In this document: positions 39,192-55,866 of the stretch, piece after piece
Layout of the letters: every line of letters starts with the position of its first letter
Position numbering within the stretch: the first letter of the stretch is position 1
Assembly (NCBI GenBank): GCA_010093815.1
Contig: ML996568.1
Direction: 5' to 3' (one strand)
DNA length: 55,866 bases
Source: Pseudovirgaria hyperparasitica
Lineage: Eukaryota
Translations under genes and position numbers: made by a program
Notes under the pieces: model-generated
Database searches by the model: none
What the model was told of the DNA's origin: nothing
What the model saw: the letters and a program-made list of their open reading frames with translations, nothing else

Positions 39192-42100
39192 CTATTTCCT
39201 GCCTCTTCCACGACCTTTACTATTGTTACCCCTGGCAACAGCCTTTCCCTTCTTGGGCTTGACTTCCTCCTCATCACTCAGCTCTTCATCGCTATCGTCC
39301 TTCTTGGTCCTTTTCTTGGCCGCTGGCTTGGGCTTTGCTGCGGCCTTCTTCTTCTTGGGCTGTTTGACATACTTGTCTTTCGACAGGTCAACCTCTTCTT
39401 CATCCTCTTCCTTGACTTCATTGATGACTTGATCATCGTCGGACTCTTCGATGGCCTCTTCAAGATCAGGCTGCTCCTTTTGTTTGGCTTTGGGTTGGAG
39501 AACGTTACCTGCCTTCATAAAAGGCAGTGGATGTGACTGTTGATTGTACCTAGAGATGATTAGCTTAGCGGTTCCATATTGCATACCCAGTACTCACAGT
39601 CTGGTGAAGGTGGCTTTGGCCTGAGACTCAATGTTGACTTTCTCTTGGTCCATGTATCCAACGCCTAATTCCTGAATAGCATCAAAGTCATCCTTTGTCA
39701 AGAAGTAGCTGTCCATCAAATCAATAACAGCAGGGACAGCCTCCTTGCCATCTGTCTCCAATTTCTTCACCATCTGCGACCACAAGACGGGCACGTAAGA
39801 TTGTCGTATCTCGTGACGATCTGCTGATGATCTTAGACGCATATGGCCTTGTATTTCCTTCACCATACGCTGCATCTTCTGCGCGGAGCTGTTCTTGCCT
39901 AGCCAAGAGGGAAAGCCGGTCTTGTAGCCCGCCATGCTTCCAGACACGAAACTCGCGGGGCGTACGAAGCTGAAGGCAGCATGAGTGGGCATAAGACTCC
40001 ACTGTTGCTGTGAGCCATGGATCATCCGGTCAACTAGATCGCCGTCGCTGATGCTTGAGGCAGCGTTGTCAACAAGCTCGAGCATCTTCAGGTTTCTCTC
40101 TTTACCAGTGTAAGTCGACGCGACGATTGGGTTTGTACCAAGATAGTTCTCTTGTAGCATCAAATAGCTGAGCTCATGATCATTAAAATATAGCTCAATC
40201 TTCTCGTTCAGGGTAGCTTTGCTGCTGGCAGCGAACATTCCCCCGCCAAGTATCTTGCCAACGATGTCCCATGGCTTTAGAATAACGTGTTTCTCCCATG
40301 CCTTCGACATAGACTTGCCGCCATCAAAGTCCATAGCTTCCTGATCCAACTTTGCTGTCGAAACCATATTGACGACCTGGCGGATATCGGCGTTACTCCC
40401 TTCGATAAGAGCGTTGATTACGTTGGGCGGGACCTTCAAGCCCTCACGAAACGCAATAGTCATGATACGAGACCGAATGTGATCAACAGTTGGACGTCGA
40501 AATGGTAAGTCATATGTGCAGTGATCAAAAGGCTTCATCTTTGGCAACCTTCGATCATTGCAGATCAGGATCATGGGGACCTGTGTCTTCTTGCAAACCG
40601 CAGCCAATGCGCCGACACCACCACGATCACCAGCTGACATACCGTCAACCTCATCCATGATAAGCACCATCTTTTTCTTAGAAGCCTCGACTTGCTTGCC
40701 ATCGCCTGAGAAGTATCCGAGTAAGGATGTGGTACTGAGTACTCCTCGGAGGCCTTCCTCGACTAGCTTCTTGCTCCTAGTGTCGCTTGCATTACTTTCA
40801 ACGATGTCATAGCCCTCGAGTTTGGCGACAAGATGAGCAGCAGTGGTTTTGCCAATGCCTGGTGGGCCATGGATAATGACAGCTCGGTAAGTGCCACTGC
40901 CGTCAGCGCCCGCAAGCTTGAAGTTTGTGCGCACTGCTCGAGGAAAGTTCTTGAGCCACTTCTGTAGCTTGTCCACCTGCGTTTTATTGCCACATATCTG
41001 GCTTAGCTGCGTAGGAGCGTACTTGACAGTCCAGAGCCTGTTATCAGGTCTGGCTTCTACAGCTTTCTCAAGATTCCCCGATGATGAAGCTTTGCCTCCG
41101 CCTGCTCTACCAGCGCCATCCTTTCTTTGGTCTCCCTTCTGCATTCTTGTTGCCAACTGGTTCATCTTTGCCTCTTCAGCTTTCTGCTTTTCTTGACGTT
41201 CTTCCCTTTCCATTTCCGCGGCCATTTTCTTGATCTTTTCTTCTTCAGCTTTCTGTTTTTCCTCATAGGCTGCTGCAGCTTTGCTGTCGCCGCCATTCGC
41301 AGGAAGACGTCGAATAAGCTCGAAGAGACCATCCTCATCGATAGTCTTGATACCGTTCGTTCTGATTGTCTGAAGCTTTTTGGGACCGGCATCAGAACCA
41401 AGGACCACGTAGCTTGTCTTCTTACTCGGCGCAGTGGTCACTTTACCCCCATAGCGCTTAACCAGAGCTTGTCCTTCTTCTCTTTGTAGTGTTTGCAGGA
41501 GACCGGTGAATACAAATGTAAGACCAGCGAGGCAGTTCGGTTGACCGGTAGGAATATCCGCCGAGCCAGCGGAGGGTGGTGCTCCTGAATTGGCATGTTG
41601 TGCCCGGAAGTTGAATTTTTTCGCCTCTCCAGATGCAGGCGGTGGGGTCGGAGGTCGTATGGTAGGAATGCTGTCGAAGATCTCTTGCACCTTCGGATTC
41701 TCCGGTACGTCTTCCTTCTTCGCTTTTTTCTTGACAGGGGACTTCTTTGCTGGTGCAGCTTTCCTGGTCTTCTTCGAAGGCTCTGCTTCTTCGTCTTCTT
41801 CAGACAATTCCACGGATTTTCGCTTCCGGCTCGATGTTTTTGTACTCTTTCCACCGTCCTTTGATTTGCTCTTGACAGCTTCCTTATGGTCATCTGAGAC
41901 AGTGAAATCACTATCGGCGTCCGTGTCCTTCATATTGATGTCATGACCGTCGGGCTCGTAGTTCTCCTCGTGGTCGTCCTTTGCCTTCTTCGTGCCCTTT
42001 CTTTTTGGCGTCTGGTGATGGGGAAGCTTTACATGAGTAACGTCCAGACTTTCAACGTAATTATCGGTATCTATCCTTCTGTTTTTGAAATCAGCTGCAA

Positions 42101-42724
42101 ATATATCATCGGCGCCATCATCATCATCGTTAAGGTATGCATCAATGTTATCTTCGTCTTCGTTATACGTCATTGGTTTCTTCGCGCGGGTCGAGGTTCG
42201 TCCATTTGTAGCAGGTGGAGAAGGCTTAGTTCGAGACTTGGCTGGAGAAGATTTGGGGCTGGCTTTGGGTGTTGTAACCTCTGTGGTTGCATTTTTCCTT
42301 TTCACTGGTTCCGAACGTTTTGGTTTCTTACTTCCAAAGTAATCGGATGTAGTTGTGGCTTGTCCCTCAGGGGTAGGTTCACGCTTCGCTTTGGGCGCAG
42401 ACTTCTTAGGCGTGGGTTTCGTGGGAGCATCATCTTCCTCTGAGTCATCATGGATCACTCGGCGGGTGGCAGGACGGCCTCGCTTCTTCGTGGGCGGGGC
42501 CTGTTTGTATTTAGCACCAGTTTGACGAAGATCTAACAAGTTTGGAGGGTATGACATTGGGAAACGTTACAGAGAAGAAGGGATACGGAATTGAATGCGA
42601 AAGCCGACGGGTATCTTCATGAGCCAAAGTGCCAACAAAGTGAACTCACCTCCTCCTTTCGTGCAGGTAACTTCTGAGTCCCTTGCCCACCACCGCCAAA
42701 GAAACTCCTGATATCAGAAGGCAT
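39192..42724 (-). CDS. RFC1: Replication factor C subunit 1 (clamp loader large subunit)
   Basis: MPSDIRSFFGG first exon; BRCT domain (NCLAGLTFVFTG..GGKVTTAPSKKTSYVVLG); LWTVKYAP; Walker A GPPGIGKT; Walker B DEVDGMS; RFC1 C-terminal KATFTRLYN across the last intron. Confidence 0.97.
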
Positions 42725-42851: not shown

Positions 42852-42993
42852 ACGCGCTCATAATGAGGTAGACGCGGGAAAGCGCGTCCGCCGCGCCGCG
42901 GTAGAACTTCGCAGTGATGAATCCGGATCCGTTTGTCCATAGTTACATGGGAAAGCTTGGCGCCCGATGCACGTCTATGCCACCAACACGCGT
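42852..42993. promoter_or_regulatory. Cluster of MCB-like (ACGCG/ACGCGT) elements upstream of RFC1
   Basis: ACGCG at 42852 and 42872, CGCGT at 42883, full ACGCGT at 42988. MBF control of DNA replication genes is established in ascomycete yeasts. Confidence 0.6.
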
Positions 42994-43126
42994 TTTTATA
43001 TATAATTAATATTTTACGGCATCATCGCCGTACTACACGTATATAGGGTCTATAACTATATAATATAGTATATAAGAGTTAGTATATATAATATTTAGTA
43101 TTTTTAACTTACTAACGCGTGTATAT

Positions 43127-44227
43127 ATAGTACCCTAGGGTATTATCTATCCCGATTCCGTATACGGATAAATTAACTTCCTCCTATAATATAATATACC
43201 TATTAATAAGATTATCGCTATTACTAAAGTTAGTAAGAATATAGTATATAGAATAAGGTTTAACCTTAAGATATACGGATAGAGAAATAAACCGTGGTTA
43301 ATACGTTATGGTCTACCTTATCGACTAAGCGATTATATAATACGATAACTACTTAAGAGACTACTTCGTAAGAGCTGGCTATACCTTAATAAGATAGCTA
43401 GATAGATATATAAAGAGTTTAATCTTACTATATCTAAATAGCTTCTATCTAAAGAGTTATCTAAGCGAGGGTGGGATTATAAGCTATTAAAATATATTAG
43501 TAGTACGCGCTTAGAGATAGCGCGTGCTTTATACCTTAAGAATATTATAGAGCTACTAGTAGACTCGTACGTCTTCTTAGATAAGGTTATTTTTAATAAG
43601 AAAATTAGATAGAGGCGTCGAGCTAGAGTACTAAAAGAATAGACTCTAACTAAGATTAGTACTCTTAATTAAGGACCTACGTATAGCGTATATAGAGCTA
43701 TTACGGCTAATGGTTTTATCTACTATTAGATAAAGGAAGGTTATTTCTCGATGGATAAGTTCTATACCTAGCTATAAGTATATCTATTACCTACCCTTAA
43801 GGTAAAATACCCCGGGCGTATAATAATAATTATTATAGATAATCTCGCACTTTATACAAACTAATAGATTAAGCTACTTATACTTAGCGCTAGCTATATT
43901 ATATAGTATATACTACCGTACTTACCTAACTTTAATTCTATTAAGCTTATATAGGCGGTAATAAAGGCATAGATTTATAGGTGGTATATCTAGATACGTT
44001 AGTAATCTTAAACTTTTAAGAACTTCCTCTATATCGTATTTATATATAGCTATACTAATTAGTAGGCTCTATGCTTCTTTAAATATACTATAGATAGATA
44101 CTATATTAATGAGACGCTCTAGTAGAAGGTAGTTACTAATTTAGAGAGGTTTAGATAAGGTAGAGATGGTAGAGAGATTACTAAAGTTAAGGAGATTAGG
44201 AGACTTTTTTACGAACTCGTTAAGTAA
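43127..44227 (+). mobile_element. RIP-inactivated IS630/Tc1/mariner (DDE_3-type) transposase
   Basis: One frame of ~367 codons with RIP-type stops. Reads VFLD(K<E)VIFN.K, IIIDNLA and ILPYLPNFNSIKL (de-RIP ~MPPYSPDFNPIEL.W), plus N-terminal HTH-like WLYL(D)(E)..W..EF. Confidence 0.85.
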
Positions 44228-44382
44228 CTTACTTATTACTAACTTACTAATAAGTAAGTTACTTAGCTAGCTAGTAATAGTCTATATATATATCCGTTTT
44301 AGGTACTATTCGTTAAGTATATAGCCTTAATATATAAATATATACTCCTAAATATACTCTAAGAAATACTATACCATTCCTA

Positions 44383-45235
44383 TCTAAATACTAGTTATAC
44401 TAGTTATAGTAAACGCCTAGAGCGAGGACGCTGTCTTACTTACCTTAAGTTACTCCTTATACTTACGAAGGTATAGACGTACGTCTAGTAGAATACTAAG
44501 TAGAATACCTACTATCTTCGCGGCTTTATAATAAGTAGTTCTAGGCCGAGTTATCTCCTTAATATAGCGGTAAGTATAGTAGTTATTATCTATATATAGT
44601 CTTAATTCGTGTATTCTAGCCCTCGTCTTATTATAAGTCTCTATCTCCTTATACTATTTAAGAGCTAATAGTACTATATCCGTCTAGTAACGCCCTAGTT
44701 ATACTAGACTACTAAAGGTTTCTATAACTCGTGTCTAAGGGGGTGTTTTATAATAAGTCTTACGAGTTAATAAATAATTCGAACTATAAGTAGATAGAGA
44801 GTAAGGTTAAGATTAAGGTTAAGGAAATATAGATATCTATATAGGTATTATAGGATTAAACCTATAACGCTATAATTCTATCTAATAAAGTAGTTAAGTA
44901 TACGCGAGCTTATCTTTATTATCTTAATAATATCTTACCGCCGCCTCCTTACGCTTAATTATTATCTATCTTATCTACTTATCTTAAAGCCTCGTATTCC
45001 GCTCCTTATAATCTAACTTAGCCTTCTTATATTATAATCTCTTTATTTTGAGGCGCTTAAGTATAGAAGTAGTACTTCCGTTAACGGTAGTTAATAAGGT
45101 ACTAGTTCTACTACTAGTTCGAGACTTCCTTAGGCACGGTCGAGTAATAATCTTATAGAATAAGTCTATTAACGGCTTATCCTTAGTTACGCCTTAAATA
45201 CTATTAATAATATTATTAGCCTATGGCTCTAAGAT
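44383..45235 (-). pseudogene. RIP-inactivated second ORF (coiled-coil, Q/P-rich) convergent with the transposase; 5' part cut off by LTR insertion
   Basis: Single frame for ~280 codons whose stops are TAA/TAG (revertible to CAA/CAG/TGG). De-RIP reading gives a charged coiled coil, FPQPQSQP, FSSPV..W and KAAK..GI.L..L.DVR.YLRKYKE. End coordinate approximate. Confidence 0.55.
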
Positions 45236-45471
45236 TGTTAGGCACGTGAGGAGCACGTGGCCTACTAGTTGATTATACATGTGTATAGTAGTCGTATATA
45301 AGTAGTGTACTCTACCCTTGAAGTAGTAGCTTCAAGATTCGGTTCTTTTGGTGTAGTTAGTTAGTGCGTAGAGCCCGCCTCCTTATAAAGATAGTCTTAT
45401 CTACCTTATAGTAGAGTATTCTATTAGATAATATAATCTTATAGTACTAACCTTAGTAGTTTATATATATC
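45236..45471. mobile_element. Fragment of a different LTR, interrupted by gypsy copy 1
   Basis: Starts with TGTTA exactly where the upstream ORF is cut. Contains TATATAAG and is less RIP-affected than its flanks. Ends at the start of the gypsy LTR. Confidence 0.5.
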
Positions 45472-45694
45472 TATAAAGAGTAAAGACGTAGGATAGTAGT
45501 CTAATAGTTTATAGAGAGACATAGAAATGTATTTATAGAGTAATCTTACTCTTATATAAGGTTAATTCCTAATAAGTAGGAATCGGTTTATACGGTCTAC
45601 TTATATAGTAACCTCGCTTAACTTAGCTAACTTAACCTAGCTCTAGCCACTACGTGGCTATATAGATTAGAATAGTCTATATAGATCTATTATA
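45472..45694 (-). repeat. LTR of copy 1 (223 bp)
   Basis: Matches 51302-51524 at an offset of 5830. Termini T(G>A)TAA...TTA(C>T)A. Confidence 0.8.
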
Positions 45695-46188
45695 GTTCCC
45701 GTCCTAATAATATCCTTCTTCTTTTTATACTTCGCCCTAAAGTACTTAAGTATATATAATTCTAAGTCTCTATAATCTATTATATATCTATATATCCGTA
45801 ACTAAGTTTCTATAATGTTATAACCATCCTTAATATAGATAAACTCGAGATTCTAGTTTACTTTTACTAGTTTATATACGCGCTTATCCCTTACTTCGTA
45901 GCTACTATCTAGAATATATAATTACTACTTTAGTTAAGTATATATTTAGCTTCGCTCGCCTTTAATTTTATTCTCTAGTATATCTATCTCGCTCTTAAGG
46001 TAAGTCGTTAATTTATATACTATCTTCCCTAGTTTAGGTTTAGAAGGGTCTATAGTAGTCTATTCTTATTAGAACTAGTCCTATATAACCTATTCGCGTT
46101 ATTATAGTTACTAATTTAGCTTCGTTAATTACCGTTAAGGGTAGATAAATATTCCTTCCTTAGATCTCTAGCTAATATATATATATAG

Positions 46189-47501
46189 ATATCTAATACT
46201 AGTTCTATCTCTAAGCCTACCTTCTCCTCTCGTAAGACTCGCTCTAAAGGTATTGCCTTCTCCCCGGCCACGCCGGCTAAGAAGCCTATCTATTACGGTA
46301 GTATAAAGGCGTGCTCTAAGTTAGAGAAGAGAGTAGCTAGGGCTACTACTACTACTACCTCTACTACTAATATAGCTACTAGTCGCTCTAATCTAGATAA
46401 TCCTAGTACTAAACTTATGGATAAAGTGGTTATAGGTTCTCCTCTCGCTCTAAAGCATATACTATCTACTCTACCTTCTCTAGAGGATAAAGAAGATCTT
46501 ATTATAGATAATAATCGCGAGCCCTTACGCTTACCTATACCGCCGCCTTACTACTCTTCCTTCCGGTCTAATATAGACTAATTTAGTTACTCTAGGTCCT
46601 TTTAGGACCTTAATATTTACTCTAAACCCTAGCCTACTAATAATAAGGCCTAGGTTACTAAGGATACTAAACGTGGTTATAGTTTACGCTATAGAAAAAC
46701 GGCGAACTACGGTTTAATATACTATAAGTATATTAAGGGCTATATAGCCGGCTCTAAATATCTCTTTTACTCTAACTCTAGTATTAGCTACTACTCTACT
46801 AACTACGACGGGCCTATACGCCCTATCTTTACTCTATCTACCCGCTACTACCGCTATACTATAACTAGTAAGACTTATCTATAGGTAAGTATAATAGGCT
46901 ATCTTAATCTAGTATAATCTAAAGTAGTCCGCGCTAATATATTCTTAGATTCCTATATATATATAAGATATATATAACGACCTTCACGTCCGTGAGACCC
47001 TTAGAGGTCCTTATAGCCGCCTACCTACTATATAGAGGGAGTTTAGGGAGCGCTATAAGCTCTTTCTAGAGGTTATTAAAGTATAAGTTATAAGCACGTT
47101 AATTATTTTTAATACCTATTAATTTTTCTAGCTACCGCGAGATCCCTAGCGCCTAGATAGTCTATTCTAGAGAGTCTATTCTAGCTATAGAGGCCGTAGA
47201 GAGGATTCGCTCTATCCCCCCCTATCCGTCTCGCGCTACTAACGGATCTTATAAGAGGTCTACTATTTCTCCCTCTAAGTCGCCTTATAAGAGGGTATAT
47301 ATTCCCTTCTAGATTATTCTAGATCGTATTAGCTAACTTTAGACCTAGTCGCTACGCTCTAGCGCTTAAGGCTCTTCCCTCTAGGCTCTAACGGATTAGA
47401 TTATTACTCTAGAGACTAAGGTTATTATTCTCTACTACTATATTATATAGTTAGAGAGAACTATACTAGAGGTTAGAACGGATAATAAGATAGAGGAGTA
47501 G
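46189..47501 (+). pseudogene. Spliced antisense cargo gene inside gypsy copy 1 (RIP-inactivated, ~400 codons)
   Basis: Exons 46189-46884, 46949-47082, 47132-47501 total 1200 nt in one frame. Intron 46885-46948 has GTAAGT..GCTAAT..TAG. Intron 47083-47131 has a RIP-mutated donor. Stops are RIP-revertible. Confidence 0.7.
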
Positions 47502-50500
47502 CTCTATAGTTCTAGCTCTATAGGTTTAGCTCTATACCTAGCTCTATATATTCTAGATCTACTATAGGTAGTACGCGCCGGCTCTATTTACCTAGCTTTT
47601 ATCTATTTTAGTCCTTTTTAGACTATTTAGATACCCGTTAGCTAGTTTCTAGTAATTTAATTCTTAACTTAATAATATTATATATACGCTCGCTTAGCTT
47701 ATAACTATCGGTTTCTATATTCTAATTTTCCTTAAGTTACCTAAGTGTAGGCACCGTATATAAATTAGTTTATCTCTATGAATTCTATTAGAGCACCCGA
47801 ACTAGTAGCCTAGTAGTTATTAGTTTAGGTACTCTAACCTTTTATATTTTATATTAAGAGTTTAATTCTATAGTAGGGTACCTTTTTTAGGTTCTTAGTT
47901 CTATGTTTTTCTCGTATATAATAGTCTATATTAGTCTATTCTAGACTCTTCTATATTATTCTATTATAGTATATCGCGTCGCGTTCCTAAAATAGTTATT
48001 TACGCTTTCTTTACGTCTAGTAACCGTACGACGCTTAAATTATAGGGCTACTATATAGAGTTTTCCTAGTACGCGTCTAGATTTCCTAGTTTAGCACTTC
48101 GTTCTCTACGGTATCCTTCTTCTTTTTATAATAACTATAATATTACTATACTTATATTAATAATACGCTATTCTATATCTTTTACTTATACGTAGCTATT
48201 ATAGAACTTAAGATATATACCGCTGGTTCCTAGGTGTCCTCGTTCTTAGTATAGTCCTTCTAACGGATTCTATATTTCTAAATACTATCTTTATTAATCC
48301 TATGTTTAATAATATGGTCCACTTCGAATATATCTAGTCTATCTTAGAGTATAATAGAGTATAACTATACGTTTATACGGCCATATATGTTAGGTCGAAA
48401 TCTTTTAAGTAGTAAGACGTGGAACACGTTATAGATTCTTATATTACTTCCTAAGTTAAGCTTATAGGCTCTTATACTAATATAACGTTTAATTTAGAAG
48501 GGACTAGCCATTTTATAATTAAGCTTCTTATTTACTCGCGATGTTTATATATTATAGACATTAAGAAGGACCTTGTTACCCTCCTTATACGTCTAATCCT
48601 TAGCTAACCTATTATAGTACTTCGTATATAAGTCGTTTACTTATTAGATTATAGCGCGATAGTTACGTACGGTTTTAAAGATTTTAATTACTAATTCCTA
48701 AGCGTAGACGTTCACGTCTATTATTTAATTAAATTAGACCGTCTAAGGCTTAAAACCTATCCTTAGACTACGTCCGAGGTTCGCCTAGAAAGGTATAATA
48801 CCTATTATACTATAACGACTATTATTATATATAAACTCTACTATACTTAGTAGGGAGGCCTAGTTATCCTACTTAAAATTATAGAATACGCGTAGATACG
48901 CCTTAAGCGTCTAGTTCTATCGCTCTATCTAGCTATCCGTCTAAGGATAAAATACTATAGATATATTTCTATTTATACTTACTATTTCGTAGAATAACGT
49001 CTAGAATTTAGATATAAAGGTACTTTCTTAGTCTATAACGATTCTTTTTAGTATACTATAGACCTTAATAATCTCGTTCTAGAATATCTACGCTAGTTCT
49101 TTAGATATAATTATCTTCTATACTAGGATATACCTAGATATCTTTATAAGTCTATCTATAATAATAAGAATAGAATTATAACTTATCCTAAGTATCTCGC
49201 TTAGAGGTAAGTTAACTATAAAGTCTATAGTAATATCTTCCTATATAAAGAGAGGGGCTAAAAGAGGCTATAAATTCCTATATGGCTTATATCTAGGGGC
49301 CTTCGTTCTTTAATAAATCGGATAAGTAGCTATCTATTCTTTAATATACTTAGATATATCTTTCTAAAAATAGTACTAACGAATTAAGCTTAGGGTACAT
49401 ATATACCTAAAGTATTCTACTAGATTAGCGTTATAGTATTAGCTAACTACGTTAAATCGCGTGTTACCTATTAGTATATAGTACTTTCTATTATAGTAAA
49501 GTAAGCCGTCTATAAAGGTCTACTTATAGTCTACTTTAGTCTATAATAACCTATCTTACTATATTTTACATAACTTTAAAACTATTAGGTCTATCTTCTA
49601 TAGATCTATAATTAACTAGGCGAGGTTAATTAGATATTTACGCCGGGTATTATTACCCTTCCCGATAGCGCTAATAAACGGCCTACTAGGGACTTCGGTA
49701 CCGCGTCTTTAGTTACCGGCTTCGGTCTTAGAGATTTAATTACTAGTATCGATGTTAGTATCTCGCTAATCGCCTAATAACTTAAAATCTAACCTCGTCC
49801 TTAAGAGTTAGGCCTATAGCTACTCTAGGACTCTATAGCTACTATAATTCTAGGCGCCTTCTTTATAGTTAGGTCTTCTTAATATTCTATTAGCTAGATT
49901 TATACTTCTAGGTCGATAGTAGATTATAAAGTAAAAGTTCGTAAGCTACTTAGCCTATTAGACCTATTAATGGTTTAAAACCGTTATACTTATAAACCCC
50001 TTTAAGTTATAGTAATTAGTTAGTAACTCGACGTTATATATAGTACCTTTAAGATAATATCGCTACTATTTAAATAACTCTACTATTACTAGTAGCTCTT
50101 AGTTATAGATAGTATATCTAGTCTTAATATCGACTATTTTACGTAAGAAGAACGTAACTAGATACTATTAGACCTTTTTAGACTTAGTTAGTCTAGGCTA
50201 GAAGAGAATACCTAAGATTATAAATTCTAACGCGTTAGTTTTAACGTAGATAGATTTAGTTAGGTCGAAGTATACTAGTAATAGGGTAGTTATAAATGCC
50301 TCTTTGATTTTCTTAAAGGAGGCCCTTTCGCCTTCTAATAATTCTATAGACTATAATTTAATATTATACTATTTCTATCTACCGCGGACCGTAATAGACG
50401 AATCTATAGTAGTAGTATACGCGTTAAGCGGTGCTACTAGCCGGGAGAAATACTTAACGAATTTTTAGTAGTAATTAGTAAATCTAATAAAGACACGTAT

Positions 50501-51301
50501 ATCTTAAACCGATTTTAGTTTAGGCTAGTCTATAATAGTAGCGACCCTATCCCTTTCTATAGTTATACCTTAATTAGTAATAATAAAGCTAAGGAAGTTA
50601 ATGTGGTCCTAGTGGAACTCGCATTTAGATAGCTTAATATATAGCTTATATTTTTCTAGCCTATCTAGGACTACGCGTACGTGCTAGATATATTCTTCTT
50701 TATTATTAGAGAAGATAAGAATGTTATTAAGGTATACGATGCACGTTATATTAAGTAGGCCTACTAGCGCGTTATTAATATACGCTTAGAAGGTTCCTAG
50801 CGCGTTAGTTAGTCTAAAAGGAACTACTATATACTCGACGTATCTATAACGGGTCCTAAACGCCGTTTTCTACTTATCGCCCTTCTTAATACGTAGGCGG
50901 TAGTAGATGTTATATAGATCGAGCTTAGTAAAGATCTTTACGCGCCCTAGTCTATTAATAGACTTAGAGATAAGAGGTAGTAGGTAACGATTCTTTCGCG
51001 TAATATTATTTAGGCTATAGTAGTCGATATATAGATAGAGACTTCTATTCTTCTTCTTTATAAAGAGAATTAGAGCTCCGGCTAGGGATATACTAGGCCT
51101 AATCTATTCTTACGTAAGGTTCTTTTCGATATATTCTTAGAGGATCTATAGCTTAGGTTCTAATAGAGGGTAGATAGGTCCGTATAGGGGTTATTAACCG
51201 TCTTCGAGGTTAATAGTAAGGTTAGTAGGTTAGTATTAAGGTAATTCGGACGAGTCGATCGCTAACGCGATATGTTAGTACATTTTATACTAATATAGTA
51301 G

Positions 51302-54300
51302 TGTAAAGAGTAAAGACGTAGGATAGTAGTCTAACAGTTTATAGAGAGATATAGGAATGTATTTATAGAGTAATCTTACTCTTATACGAGGTTAATTCCT
51401 AACGAGTAGGAATTAGTTTATACGGTCTACTTATATAGTAATCTCGCTTAACTTAGCTAACTTAACCTAGCTCTAGCCACTACGTGGCTATATAGATTAG
51501 AATAGTCTATATAGATCCGTTATAGTTCCCGTCCTAATAATATTCTTCTTCTTTTTATACTTCGCCCCGAAGTACTTAAGTATATATAATTCTAAGTCTC
51601 TATAATCTATCGTGTACCTATATATCCGTAACTAAGTTTCTATAATATTATAACTATCCTTAATATAGGTGAACTCGAGATTCTAGTTTACTTTTATTAG
51701 TTTATGCACGCGCTTATCCCTTACTTTATAGCTACTACCTAGGATATATAATCGCTACTTTAGTCGAGTATATATTTAGCTTCGCTCGCCTTTAATTTTA
51801 TTCTCTAGTATATCTACCTCGCTCTTAAGGTAAGTCGTTAATTTATATACTATCTTCCCTAGTTTAGGTTTAGAAGGGTCTATAGTAGTCTATTCTTATT
51901 AGAACCGGTTCTATATAACCTATTTATATTATTACGGTTACTAATTTAGCTTCGTTAATCACCGTTAGGGGTAGACGAATATTCCTTCCTTAGATCTCTA
52001 GCTAATATATATATATAGATATCTAATACTAGTTCTATCTCTAAGCCTACCTCCTCCTCTTATAAGACTCGCTCTAAAGATATCGCCTTCTCCCCGGCTA
52101 TACTAGCTAAGAAGCCTACCTATTATAGTAGTATAAAGGCGTACTCTAAGTTAGAGAAGAGAGTAGCTAGGGCTACTACTACTACTGCCTCTACTACTAA
52201 TATAGCTACTAGTCGCTCTAATCTAGATAATCCTAGTACTAAACTTATAGATAAAGTAGTTATAGGTTCTCCTCTCGCTCTAAAGTATACGCCGTCTACT
52301 CTATCTTCTCTAGAGAATAAAGAAGATCTTATTATAGATAATAATCGCGAGCCCTCGCGCTTACCCACGCCGCCATCTCGCTACTTTTCCTTCTAGTCTA
52401 ATATAGACTAATTTAGTCGCTCTAGGTCCTTTTAGAACCTTAATATTTACTCTAAACCCTAGCCTACTAATAATAAGGCCTAGGTTACCGAGAATACTAA
52501 ACGTAGTTATAGTTTACGCTATAGGAAAACGGCGAACTACGGTTTAATATACTATAAGTATATTAAGGGCTATATAGCCGGCTCTAAATATCTCTTTCGC
52601 TCTAACTCTAGTATTAGCTACTACTCTACTAACCGCGATAGGCCTATATACCCTATCTTTACTCTATCTACCTACTACCGCTACTATACTATAACTAGTA
52701 AGACTTATCTATAGATAAGTATAATAGACTATCTTAATCTAGTATAATCTAAAGTGGTTCGCGCTAATATATTCTTAGGTTCCTATATATATATAAGATA
52801 TATATAACGACCTTCGCGTCCGTAAGACCCTTAGGGGTCCTTATAGCCGTCTATCTACTATATAGAGGGAGTTTAGGGAGCGCTATAAGCTCTTTCTAGA
52901 GGTTATTAAAGTATAAGTTATAAGCACGTTAATTATTTTTAATACCTATTAATTTTTCTAGCCGCCGCGAGATCCCTAGTACCTAGGCTACCTATTCTAG
53001 GGAGTCTATCCTAGCTATAGAGGCCGTAGAGAGGATTTACTCTATCTCCCCCCCGTCCGTCTCACGCTACTAATAGATCTTATAAGAGGTCTACTATTTC
53101 TCCCTCTAAGTCGCCTCGTAAGAGGGTATATATTCCCTTCTAGATTATTCTAGATTATATTAGCTAACTTTAGACCTAGTCGCTACGCTCTAGCGCTTAA
53201 GGCTCTTCTCTCTAGACTCTAACGGATCGGGTTATTACTCTAGAGACTAAGGTTATCGTCCTCCGCCGCTATATCGTATGGTTAGAGAGAACTATACTAG
53301 AGGTTAGGATAGATAATAAGATAGAGAAGTAGCTCTATAGTTCTAGCTCTATATATTAGCTCTATACCTAGCTCTATATATTCTAGATCTACTATAGGTA
53401 GTGCGCGCCGGCTCTATTTACCTAGCTTTTATTCGTTTTAGTCCTTTTTAGACTATTTAGATACCTATTAGCTAGTTTCTAGTAATTTAATTCTTAACTT
53501 AATGATATTATATATGCGCTCGCTTAGCTTATAACTATTAGTTTCTATATTCTGATTTTCCTTAAGTCACCTAAGTGTGGGCACCATATATAAATTAGTT
53601 TATCTCTATGAATTCTATTAGAGTACCTAAACTAGTAGCCTAGTAGTTATTAGTTTAGGTACTCTAACCTTTTATATTTTATATTAAGAGTTTAATTCTA
53701 TAGTAGGGTACCTTTTTTTAGTTCTTAGTCCTATGTTTTTCTCGTGTATAATAGTCTATATTAGTCTATTCTAGATTCTTCTATATTATTCTATTATAGT
53801 ATGTCACGTTACGTTTCTAAAATGGTTATTTACGCTTTCTTCGCGTCTAGTAACCGTGTAACGCTTAAATTATAGGGCTACTATATAGGGTTTTCCTAGT
53901 GCGCGTCTAGATTTCCTAGTTTAGTACTTCGTTCTCTACGGTATCCTTCTTCTTTTTATAATAACCGCGATATTACTATACTTATATTAATAATACGCTA
54001 TTCTATATCTTTTACTTATATATAGCTATTATAGAACTTAAGATATATACCACTAGTTCCTAGGTGTCCTTATCCTTAGTATAGTCCTTCTAACGGATTC
54101 TATATTTCTAAACACCGTCTTTATTAATCCTATATTTAATAATATAGTCTACTTCGAACACGTCTAGTCTATCTTAGGGTATAATAGAGTATAACTACAC
54201 GTTTATACGGCTATATACGTTAGGTCGAAATCTTTCGAGTAGTAAGACGTGGAACACGTTATGGATTCTTATATCGCTTCCTAACTCGAGCTCGTAGGCT

Positions 54301-55866
54301 CTTATACTAATACGACGTTTAATTCGGAAGGGACTAGCTATTTTATAATCGAGCTTCTTATTTACTTACGATGTTCGTATATTATAAACGTTAAGAAGGA
54401 CCTTGTCGCCCTCCTCGTACGTCTAATCCTTAGCTAATCTATTATACTACTTCGTATACGAGTCGTTTACTTATTAGATTATAGCGTGATAGTTACGTGC
54501 GGTTTCGAAGATTTTAATCGCTAATTCCTAAGCGTGGACGTTCACGTCTATTATTTAATTAAATTAGACCGTCTAAGACTTAAAACCTATCCTTAGACTA
54601 CGTCCGAGGTTCGCCTAGAAAGGTATAATACCTATTATACTATAATAACTATTATTATATACGAACTCTACTATACTTAGTAGGGAGGCCTAGTTATTCT
54701 ACTCGAAATTATAGAATACACGTAGGTAGGCCTTAAGCGTCTGGTTCTATCGCTCTATCTAGCCATCCGTCTAAGGATAAAATACTATAGATATATTTCT
54801 ATTTATGCTTACCATTTCGTAGAATAACGTCTAGAATTTGGACGTGAAGGTACTTCCTCGGTCTATAACGATCCTTTTTAGTATACTATAGACCTTAATA
54901 ATCTTGTTCTAGAACACCTACGCTAGTTCTTTAGATATAATCGTCTTCTATACTAGGATATACCTAGATATCTTTATAAGTCTATCTATAATAATAAGAA
55001 TAGAATTATAACTTATTCTAAGTATCTCGCTTAGAGGTAAGTTAACTATAAAGTCTATAGTAACGTCTTTCTATATAAAGAGGGGGGCTGAAAGAGGCTA
55101 TAAATTCCTATATGGCTTATGCCTAGGGGCCTTCGTTCTTTAATACATCGGATAAGTAGCTATCTATTCTTTAATATACTTAGGCATATCTTCCTAAAAA
55201 TAGTACTAATAAATTAAGCTTAGGGTATGTATATACCTAAAGTATCCTACTAGGTTAGCGTTATAGTATTAGCTAACTACGTTAAATCGCGTGTTACCCG
55301 TTAGTATATAGTACTTTCTATTATAGTAAAGTAAGCCGTCTATAAAGGTCTACTTATAGTCTACTTTAGTCCCTAATAACCTATCTTACTATATTTTACG
55401 TAACTTTAAAACTATCGGGTCTATCTTCTATAGATCCACGATTAACTAGACGAGGTTAATTAGATATTTACGCTAGGTATTATCGCCCTTCCCGATAGCG
55501 CTAATAAACGGCCTACTAGGGACTTTAGTACCGCGTCTTTGGTTACCGGCTTCGGTCTTAGAGATTTAATTACCGGTATTAACGTTAGTATCTCGCTAAT
55601 CGCCTAATAACTTAAAATCTAACCTCGTCCTTAAGAGTTAGGCCTATAGCTACTCTAGGACCCTATAGCTACTATAATCCTAGGCGCCTTCTTTATAGTT
55701 AGGTCTTCTTAATATTCTATTAGCTAGGTTTATACTTCTAGGTTAATAGTAGATTATAAAGTAAAAGTTCGTAAGCTACTTAGTCTATTAGACCTATTAA
55801 CGGTTTAAAACTATTATACTTATAAACCCCTTTAAGTTATAGTAATTAGTTAGTAACTTAACGTTA
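51302..55866 (-). mobile_element. Ty3/gypsy chromovirus, copy 2 (nested in copy 1, runs off the window)
   Basis: Begins with intact TGTAAAG LTR (51302-51524) and is colinear with 45472-~50035 (offset 5830, then 5831). Contains the antisense gene, chromodomain, integrase and the end of RNase H. Confidence 0.93.
52019..53332 (+). pseudogene. Antisense cargo gene inside gypsy copy 2 (RIP-inactivated)
   Basis: Paralog of 46189-47501. First donor mutated GT>AT (~52715), and a 1-nt insertion in the poly-C run near 53046-53054. Confidence 0.65.

Follow-up and report, generated by a model that had tools for sequence, protein, structure and literature searches.

Does the DNA that a chromovirus carries beyond its pol gene hold a gene of the element itself, and what kind of protein did such a gene encode? 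The question is raised by the end of a 55,866-nucleotide stretch of Pseudovirgaria hyperparasitica DNA (contig ML996568.1 of assembly GCA_010093815.1), which we refer to in its entirety as the window. An extra segment there separates the chromodomain of a Ty3/gypsy retrotransposon from its 3' long terminal repeat (LTR), and it appears to carry, on the strand opposite pol, the remnant of a protein gene of the element's own, with two open reading frames (ORFs), ORF A and ORF B, as the best-preserved exons. The best overall explanation of the locus, to which we assign a rough probability of 0.6, is a chromovirus killed by repeat-induced point mutation (RIP) that carries the remnant of an antisense gene of its relatives' kind. 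Among the parts of this reading, we hold with good confidence that the frame is a real former antisense gene borne by the element; that this gene had a cysteine-cluster motif stands at about even odds, and a regulatory function of its product is proposed tentatively.

The element can be described by its composition, its repeat structure, and its pol domains. Over its final 13 kb (about 43000-55866), the window has a G+C content of 30-37%, compared with ~50% elsewhere, and the RIP indices of this AT-rich block (TpA/ApT 1.81; (CpA+TpG)/(ApC+GpT) 0.12) depart from those of the remaining window (0.74 and 1.23). Self-comparison of the window returned a single long direct repeat, in which 45474-50036 corresponds to 51304-55866 with 92.6% identity and a spacing of 5830 bp and which continues up to the window end; nearly all of the 340 differences between copy 1 and copy 2 are transitions. 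A Pfam scan of all six translated frames, with X placed at stops, located on the minus strand the reverse transcriptase (RT; RVT_1, 51061-50578, E 8.8e-18), RNase H (RT_RNaseH_2, 50329-49972, E 1.4e-10), and a Tf2-type integrase SH3 domain (SH3_Tf2-1, 48580-48397, E 9.2e-10; 54410-54227 in copy 2), in the Ty3 order and in one frame. The same frame contains a chromodomain at 48328-48184 that stays under the Pfam cut-off (Chromo, E 0.0028, 18 bits against 25.1), with the motif Y.I.*K.Y....DT*EP still readable and stops at expected Trp sites. Among 8000 candidates, 1589 Pol proteins matched at E<=1e-10, chromodomain-bearing relatives included, the best with 36% identity over 98% of the query. Their alignments place residue ~204 at 51289 and run down to 48176-48212, and copy 1 therefore starts at the very start of RT.

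The repeat unit begins with T[A/G]TAAAGAG at 45472 and 51302, a sequence whose minus-strand reading is ...ACA, TG being retained in copy 2, and the DNA left of the two copies is unrelated. In a DNA run that holds this sequence, contigs of other genomic copies depart at 45709/45710 (joints to 44529 and 47883), placing the 3' LTR at about 45472-45710. An in-frame 'IPxxY' run across 51304 proved spurious; the real IPxEY and LPxH motifs lie below the junction. The interval 45472-55866 is made up of two nested copies, in the same orientation, of a RIP-inactivated chromovirus, that is, a Ty3/gypsy element with a chromodomain. Most simply, copy 2 ends against the 5'-truncated copy 1 through a nested insertion, and its other end lies beyond the window. 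The parts of the element are as follows.

48184-51303, minus strand: pol of copy 1, from RT to chromodomain, 5'-truncated at the RT start, with 51 stops in the 617 codons of its true frame.
45472-45710, minus strand: 3' LTR of copy 1, ~239 bp, placed by the repeat boundary and the contig joints; its TG..CA ends are blurred by RIP.
51302-51540, minus strand: 3' LTR of copy 2, in direct contact with the truncated copy 1.
45714-45727, minus strand: polypurine tract AAAAAGAAGAAGGA, directly upstream of the LTR; copy 2 is the same except for one G>A.
45728-48183, no strand assigned: accessory region of ~2.45 kb, from the chromodomain end to the polypurine tract.

The first-pass annotation of this DNA had noted ~2 kb of extra sequence after the chromodomain, which is confirmed here at about 2.45 kb. 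The repeat period of 5830 bp comes close to one element length, as it would in a tandem array in which the extra DNA is the LTR, gag, and protease of the following element; alternatively, it might be an inverted gag with a CCHC knuckle (YYKYIKGYIAGSKY), whose CX2CX3-4HX4-5C spacing a Tyr pattern in this DNA resembles. In either case the open plus frame would be no more than the reverse side of gag or an inverted gag. The anatomy speaks differently. The LTR occupies the low end of the unit and borders immediately on the point where RT of copy 1 starts, leaving no room for gag and protease; the flanks downstream of the LTR differ from each other and lack a primer-binding site; and the polypurine tract fits the minus strand only. 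The N-terminal ~200 residues, containing the protease, of 120 relatives' Pol match nothing there, and no Pfam family, gag and protease included, was obtained at E<=10 in six reads of the minus strand of the accessory region. For the inverted gag, the His position is moreover off by one. We rejected both ideas on these grounds, and they retain next to no probability.

We then turned to the plus strand of the accessory region, opposite pol. The first-pass annotation had described a continuous frame of ~400 codons at 46189-47501, split by two introns, with a GTAAGT donor at 46000, a GCTAAT...TAG acceptor, and an ATA in place of the start codon at 46189. The last three signals are all present, and the region contains the following.

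46000-46188, plus strand: candidate 5'-untranslated-region intron (AAG|GTAAGT at 46000, GCTAAT at 46171-46176, TAG at 46186-46188), present in both copies.
46189-46581, plus strand: ORF A, 130 codons, starting with ATA (a possible RIPed ATG) and rich in Ser, Thr, Lys, and Pro.
46582-46653, plus strand: 72-nt gap after the in-frame TAA at 46579-81, with three more in-frame TAG, which together with that TAA makes four stops in 25 codons; it ends TACTAAT..CCTAG.
46654-46884, plus strand: ORF B, 76 codons, in the frame of ORF A, ending with a TAG directly before GTAAGT.
46885-46948, plus strand: candidate intron of 64 nt (GTAAGT, branch GCTAAT at 46933-46938, TTAG); the donor in copy 2 is ATAAGT.
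46949-47501, plus strand: possible downstream exon(s), with a 51-codon open stretch at 47157-47312 (SPSKSPYKR) and an 'ALTD.IITLETKV' stretch.
52019-52396 and 52484-52714, plus strand: counterparts of ORF A and ORF B in copy 2, of 125 and 76 codons.

A frame of 130 codons was reached in 1 of 1000 dinucleotide shuffles of the extra region, in none of 1000 shuffles of the local 800 bp, and in none of 300 of the AT-rich block. Only 5 stops interrupt the 232 codons of the plus frame 46189-46884, a density four times below that of the genuine pol frame (~1 per 12 codons), and ORF A shows a codon-position bias, with A at 0.40 in position 1, C at 0.38 in position 2, and T at 0.48 in position 3. The frame is in both copies, and the word depth of the DNA run, which is a rough guide, amounts to 65-155 thousand across 45416-48031, compared with 71-242 thousand in pol and 7-43 thousand in the neighbouring element; the extra segment thus belongs to the repeated element and not to one locus. 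The earlier proposal that copy 2 holds the same gene, and that the gene is hence part of the mobile unit, is in agreement with the two ORFs found there. Together, these data show that the plus-strand frame of the accessory region is a former coding region.

RIP itself could be thought to have produced such frames. It is extreme in this block, as the two indices show, the plus frame contains a low-complexity (CTA)13 run and has no homologue that we could find, and Tyr-based motifs and GTAAGT are frequent here by chance. If the frames were by-products of a skewed composition and never a gene, however, a length of 130 codons should not be confined to 1 of 2300 dinucleotide shuffles, nor should the low stop density and the codon-position bias appear; this view also leaves aside that relatives of the element hold selected antisense genes at the same place. 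We consider it very unlikely.

These relatives are 79 loci from metagenome contigs with a Pol alignment. In several of them, pol and the 3' LTR are 1.4-2.1 kb apart, and antisense ORFs occupy that interval. We counted antisense ORFs of at least 60 codons with a CX2CX5-6C motif within 2.5 kb in the 45 loci in which the pol C-terminus is retained and followed by at least 500 bp. Such ORFs occur in 16 of the 45, or in 14 once L003 (interrupted by a stop within its motif) and the uninspected L013 are discounted. As controls, the sense strand gave 6 of 45 loci, and the antisense strand inside pol gave 8 motif ORFs in 143.6 kb. L037, L052, and L059 each have a recognisable 3' LTR, with the antisense ORFs situated between it and pol. 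The contiguous Zn2Cys6 spacing CX2CX6CX8-10CX2CX6-7C is found in L026, L033, L046, and L050. In all three loci inspected for it, the two halves of the cluster are split by a short intron-like segment (GTAAGT in L059, GTGAGT in L022, and ATAAGT in L055, to which L056 is identical) with a CTRAY-type branch and YAG, the removal of which yields the full spacing.

The encoded proteins are small (130-230 residues), with the Cys motif, a basic segment, a single long helix, and an acidic tail, and they form sub-families that are alike only within themselves. The ratio of nonsynonymous to synonymous substitution rates (dN/dS) is 0.15 for L035-L052 (182 codons) and 0.28 for L033-L046 (100 codons): the antisense Cys-motif genes of the relatives are under purifying selection. 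In databases, the L033 type matches 298 relatives at E<=1e-3, none of which has a name or a Pfam domain; the nearest clusters to L026 in an atlas search are unnamed Ascomycota proteins, and the L001 antisense protein found only itself in a set of 5.8 billion proteins. Pfam Zn_clus is matched below threshold in 4 of 12 ORFs (E 0.006-0.68). AlphaFold predicts a long, confident helix after the motif, with a predicted local distance difference test score (pLDDT) of 95-98 at residues 100-152 of the L033 type and, in a second model, a helix at residues 47-90; over the Cys motif the pLDDT is 38-69. As weak hints, L026 aligned with HAP1 (1hwt) at E 0.31, and the L050 model gave only three Foldseek rows, all of them Zn2Cys6 proteins (PUT3 and, twice, Pho7; E 6.5-9.3). 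The list from a wide VIA-align search with the L050 model is dominated by single helices, and a search of the L050 sequence against the PDB returned nothing relevant.

Three further observations concern these genes. At L050:5240-5908 and L026:5635-6159, the antisense ORF and the pol 3' end share at least ~100 bases, which means that both strands of this DNA may be coding. In A2 and A3, which are related to the antisense protein of L033, most differences between copies are R/W, R/Q, R/C, E/K, and G/S, as from CpG transitions. Among the L033-type relatives, gene callers often start at a Met inside the second CxxC, losing the first half of the cluster.

To relate the window to these loci, we built a Pol tree of 40 rows. 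Besides the window, it comprises those 39 loci whose pol ORF reaches 900 codons or more, the remaining 40 not being included. In this tree, L001 and L002 form a group with the window pol (Shimodaira-Hasegawa-like approximate likelihood ratio support 95), which sits on a very long branch, and antisense genes are spread over several branches of the tree. The antisense ORF of L001 reads ...CVKCAKGY...CESCTGATNC-L-E|GTAGGT, with an intron of 44 nt, and that of L002 reads ...CGRCMLMNSEC-L-A|GTAAGT, with an intron of 79 nt. The window reads ...YYKYIKGY...Y-RR-Y-TITSKT-Y-L-*|GTAAGT, with an intron of 64 nt. The donor follows two codons after the third Cys or Tyr in all three. A rough estimate, which is not a computed test, puts the chance of coincidence at ~0.004-0.03 (~5 motif matches and 2 donors over 2450 positions). 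The two segments of the window concerned are these.

46720-46743, plus strand: YYKYIKGY, which resembles the CVKCAKGY of the nearest relative, L001; a resemblance only.
46843-46878, plus strand: R-Y-R-R-Y-TITSKT-Y, which has the CX2CX6C spacing if its Tyr codons (TAC, TAT, TAT) were Cys.

We also conducted a RIP-aware comparison, in which the relatives were RIPed in silico and aligned locally, with shuffle controls. Exon 1 of L001 scored 47 against ORF B, compared with 32.5 +/- 5.8 for the shuffles, 46 of 2000 of which reached that score. The antisense proteins of L001 and L002 are themselves not significantly alike (195 of 2000 shuffles), and a missing similarity between the window and either of them is therefore expected. 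In the lack of demonstrable sequence similarity, the link between the window and its relatives rests on position, strand, motif type, and intron placement.

The same lack of similarity to the relatives' antisense proteins would be accounted for if the segment were foreign DNA, a captured fragment of a host gene or an element nested in reverse, that was amplified with the chromovirus and is unrelated to those genes. One DNA contig links 45709 to 47883 with 7 other letters between, skipping 2173 bases that include the antisense frames, and could represent a segment-less form; this joint rests on that one contig, with 22 letters on its short side, and may equally reflect a nested insertion elsewhere. 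The word depth over 45852-47595 is about half that of pol, which is a weak measure. On the other side, no transposon or host-protein Pfam family was detected on either strand of the segment (none at E<=0.01 on the plus strand), and it agrees with the two nearest relatives in where it lies, in its orientation, in its Cys-type motif, and in the site of its intron. Antisense genes stand on several branches of the Pol tree, and L001 and L002 fail to resemble each other just as the window fails to resemble them. Foreign origin is in our view improbable, although clearly less so than the explanations by RIP or by a tandem array. We prefer the former antisense gene, which on this evidence would be the same gene as the antisense genes of the relatives.

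Whether that gene encoded a cysteine cluster depends on how its Tyr codons are read. The only surviving Cys codon, TGC at 46312 in ORF A, is TAC in copy 2, so RIP turns Cys into Tyr here. The first-pass annotation had proposed that, with both copies combined, the codons before the intron revert to R-C-R-R-C-x6-C, the second half of a Zn(II)2Cys6 cluster. Read codon by codon, both copies give R64-Y65-R66-R67-Y68-T-I-T-S-K-T-Y75-L-TAG at 46843-46884, followed by GTAAGT: the spacing holds in the comparison of copies, and Tyr codons stand where Cys was wanted. The eight TAT codons are identical in both copies, as is more readily understood if they were TGT, CAT, or TAT than if they were CGT. A cysteine at the Tyr codons of the motif is possible. 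The full six-Cys pattern CX2CX6CX5-12CX2CX6-8C occurs in no frame of the window, even with Tyr counted as Cys, and the Pfam gathering score for Zn(II)2Cys6 (PF00172) is not reached on the window plus strand.

The six Arg/Tyr differences between the copies in 46654-46884 have a feature of their own. All are CGC in one copy and TAC in the other, with both bases altered and never one alone, and this suggests that a first hit at CpG makes CpA or TpG, which is then mutated almost at once.

Several findings weigh against the proposed gene or against its reading as a cysteine-cluster protein. The putative cysteines are Tyr codons in both copies. At the six informative codons of ORF B, TAC corresponds to CGC in the other copy, and TAC, including Y65, may therefore be a former Arg. 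The earlier C-x2-C candidate, the half-motif YLFYSNSSISY, is refuted, its second Y being Arg (CGC) in copy 2. By chance alone, [CY]x2[CY]x6[CY] occurs 0-6 times per frame in this DNA. GTAAGT is likewise common, with 42 occurrences in the window against 32.6 expected, and is by itself no evidence of splicing. The two-intron model is not supported: the candidate intron at 46885-46948 is well formed, but the supposed first intron, 46582-46653, has a branch and an acceptor (TACTAAT..CCTAG|46654) and no usable in-phase GT donor that would keep the frame. This interval is either an intron without a recognisable donor or a run of stops made by RIP.

The continuity of the frame also failed beyond ORF B. 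Downstream of 46950, the three plus frames hold 13, 18, and 17 stops in 183-184 codons, so the ~400-codon frame cannot be maintained; past 46885 no frame is clearly coding and none resembles the relatives, and for the C-terminal coiled coil that had been suggested no single frame is distinguished from the others. A de-RIP of the two copies, taking the un-mutated base wherever they differ, removed at most 2 downstream stops.

Similarity searches point in the same direction. With the plus frame as query (X at stops), phmmer returned no match among 1.84 billion representatives, and tblastn with six frames of the extra region of both copies against the 79 loci returned none at E<=1. The alignment of L002 with ORF B is not significant (534 of 2000 shuffles reach its score), and the right frame obtains a z of 1.9 with L001 and 1.4 with L002, compared with up to 3.5 for wrong frames. 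Among the relatives, even the best of the 12 ORFs scores 17 bits for Zn_clus, where the cut-off is 21; none of the fold matches reached significance, and Foldseek with the L033-type model gave no rows.

The window gene is dead in its present form: it starts with ATA, has kept a single Cys codon, and is riddled with stops in its downstream part. Its reading as a zinc-cluster-like regulator is likely but unproven. In its active form, the gene would have been transcribed from the 3'-LTR side, against pol. In the life cycle of LTR elements, the sense genomic RNA alone is reverse-transcribed, and because of this the introns of an antisense gene would survive retrotransposition. The product may have been a zinc-binding, DNA-binding nuclear protein, probably dimeric through its helix in the manner of Gal4/HAP1-type factors, and it could have regulated the element through transcription from the LTR or through escape from silencing. 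A wider proposal, which we put forward as speculative, is that a broad set of fungal chromoviruses encodes a Gal4-like zinc-cluster transcription factor of its own antisense to pol, with introns that often lie in the middle of the cluster and that the antisense orientation shields from loss during retrotransposition. This factor would have as its target either the LTR of the element itself or the silencing imposed by the host, and the window would contain a RIP-killed member of the set.

Other features of the window lie outside this argument. A 14-bp tandem repeat of 4.6 copies occupies 47499-47561 (no strand assigned), just beyond the end of the frame as first described, and a second 14-bp tandem repeat of 2.3 copies is found at 47153-47184 of the accessory region. 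Another, older Ty3/gypsy relic, distinct from the chromovirus, occupies 42927-45387 on the minus strand; it shows RT-like stretches at 44644-44585 and 43476-43321 and a much lower word depth (7-14 thousand). Less mutated versions of this relic, with A>G and T>C differences, are present in contigs of X3 and X4, which come from another sample with the same species label and contain next to none of the chromovirus. At 39594-42566, also on the minus strand, an intact frame of 990 codons encodes replication factor C subunit 1 (RFC1_C E 8.6e-60, BRCT, AAA). It lies ~400 bp from the RIP block, so the mutated region stops sharply beside an essential gene.

Extra antisense genes are known from other LTR retrotransposons. 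The gene brtn is an additional antisense gene of the Boty-like (BcGypsy1) chromoviruses of Botrytis cinerea, according to the literature (PMC8365987, PMC7264820, PMC4227169, PMC5987419); the first-pass annotation had pointed to it, and an antisense gene of that kind is indeed in print (PMC8365987, PMC7264820). As far as these sources describe it, brtn shares with the window gene a fungal Ty3/gypsy host element with a chromodomain, a position between pol and the 3' LTR, and the opposite strand. The window copy differs in being RIP-dead, and the likeness drawn here is one of position and strand. The window gene is a dead member of this known kind of antisense extra gene, and the Cys-cluster family of the relatives is possibly an undescribed variant of it. 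A full-text literature search for a zinc-cluster-like gene lying antisense in a retrotransposon returned no paper; it did not cover the original brtn paper, cited as Zhao et al. 2011 (Virology 417:248), and is not proof of absence.

In plants, antisense ORFs between pol and the 3' LTR are described for Grande1, RIRE2, Retand, and PvRetro13 (PMC7264820), with domains of the plant mobile domain (PMD) and transposase 28 (Tr28) types (PMC4408406). They resemble the window gene in position and orientation and are conserved within a family. They differ in belonging to Tat/Retand lineages and not to chromoviruses, and in having the plant mobile domain or transposase 28, with no Cys-cluster spacing. 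Extra antisense genes are known in Botrytis and in plants, and the comparison of relatives offers a handle on their function: a selected, abundant, and unnamed gene with the spacing, helix, and tail of a zinc-cluster regulator and with an intron of a kind that would be lost from any but an antisense gene. The window adds only a dead example, although its intron is placed just as it is in the intact relatives nearest to it.

Compared with the Zn(II)2Cys6 regulators Gal4, HAP1, PUT3, and Pho7 (PF00172), the relatives' proteins share the CX2CX6CX8-11CX2CX6-7C spacing followed by a long helix and an acidic tail. Unlike those regulators, they are encoded by small, fast-evolving, element-borne genes, none of which reaches the Pfam cut-off, and the window retains one half-motif only, in Tyr codons. 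A more distant parallel, used here as a working analogy that implies no homology, is HBZ of human T-cell leukaemia virus type 1 (HTLV-1), which is expressed from a spliced antisense transcript of the 3' LTR and is a dimerising basic leucine zipper (bZIP) regulator. Both cases feature a spliced antisense accessory gene at the 3' end of a retroelement and a transcription-factor-like protein; HBZ differs in belonging to an animal retrovirus and in being a bZIP protein instead of a Cys cluster. If the proteins bind zinc and the DNA of the element, chromoviruses would carry their own transcription factor, with a bearing on how they escape or tune silencing in fungal genomes. Such a retrotransposon with a private transcription factor would be a fungal counterpart of the retroviral accessory regulators.

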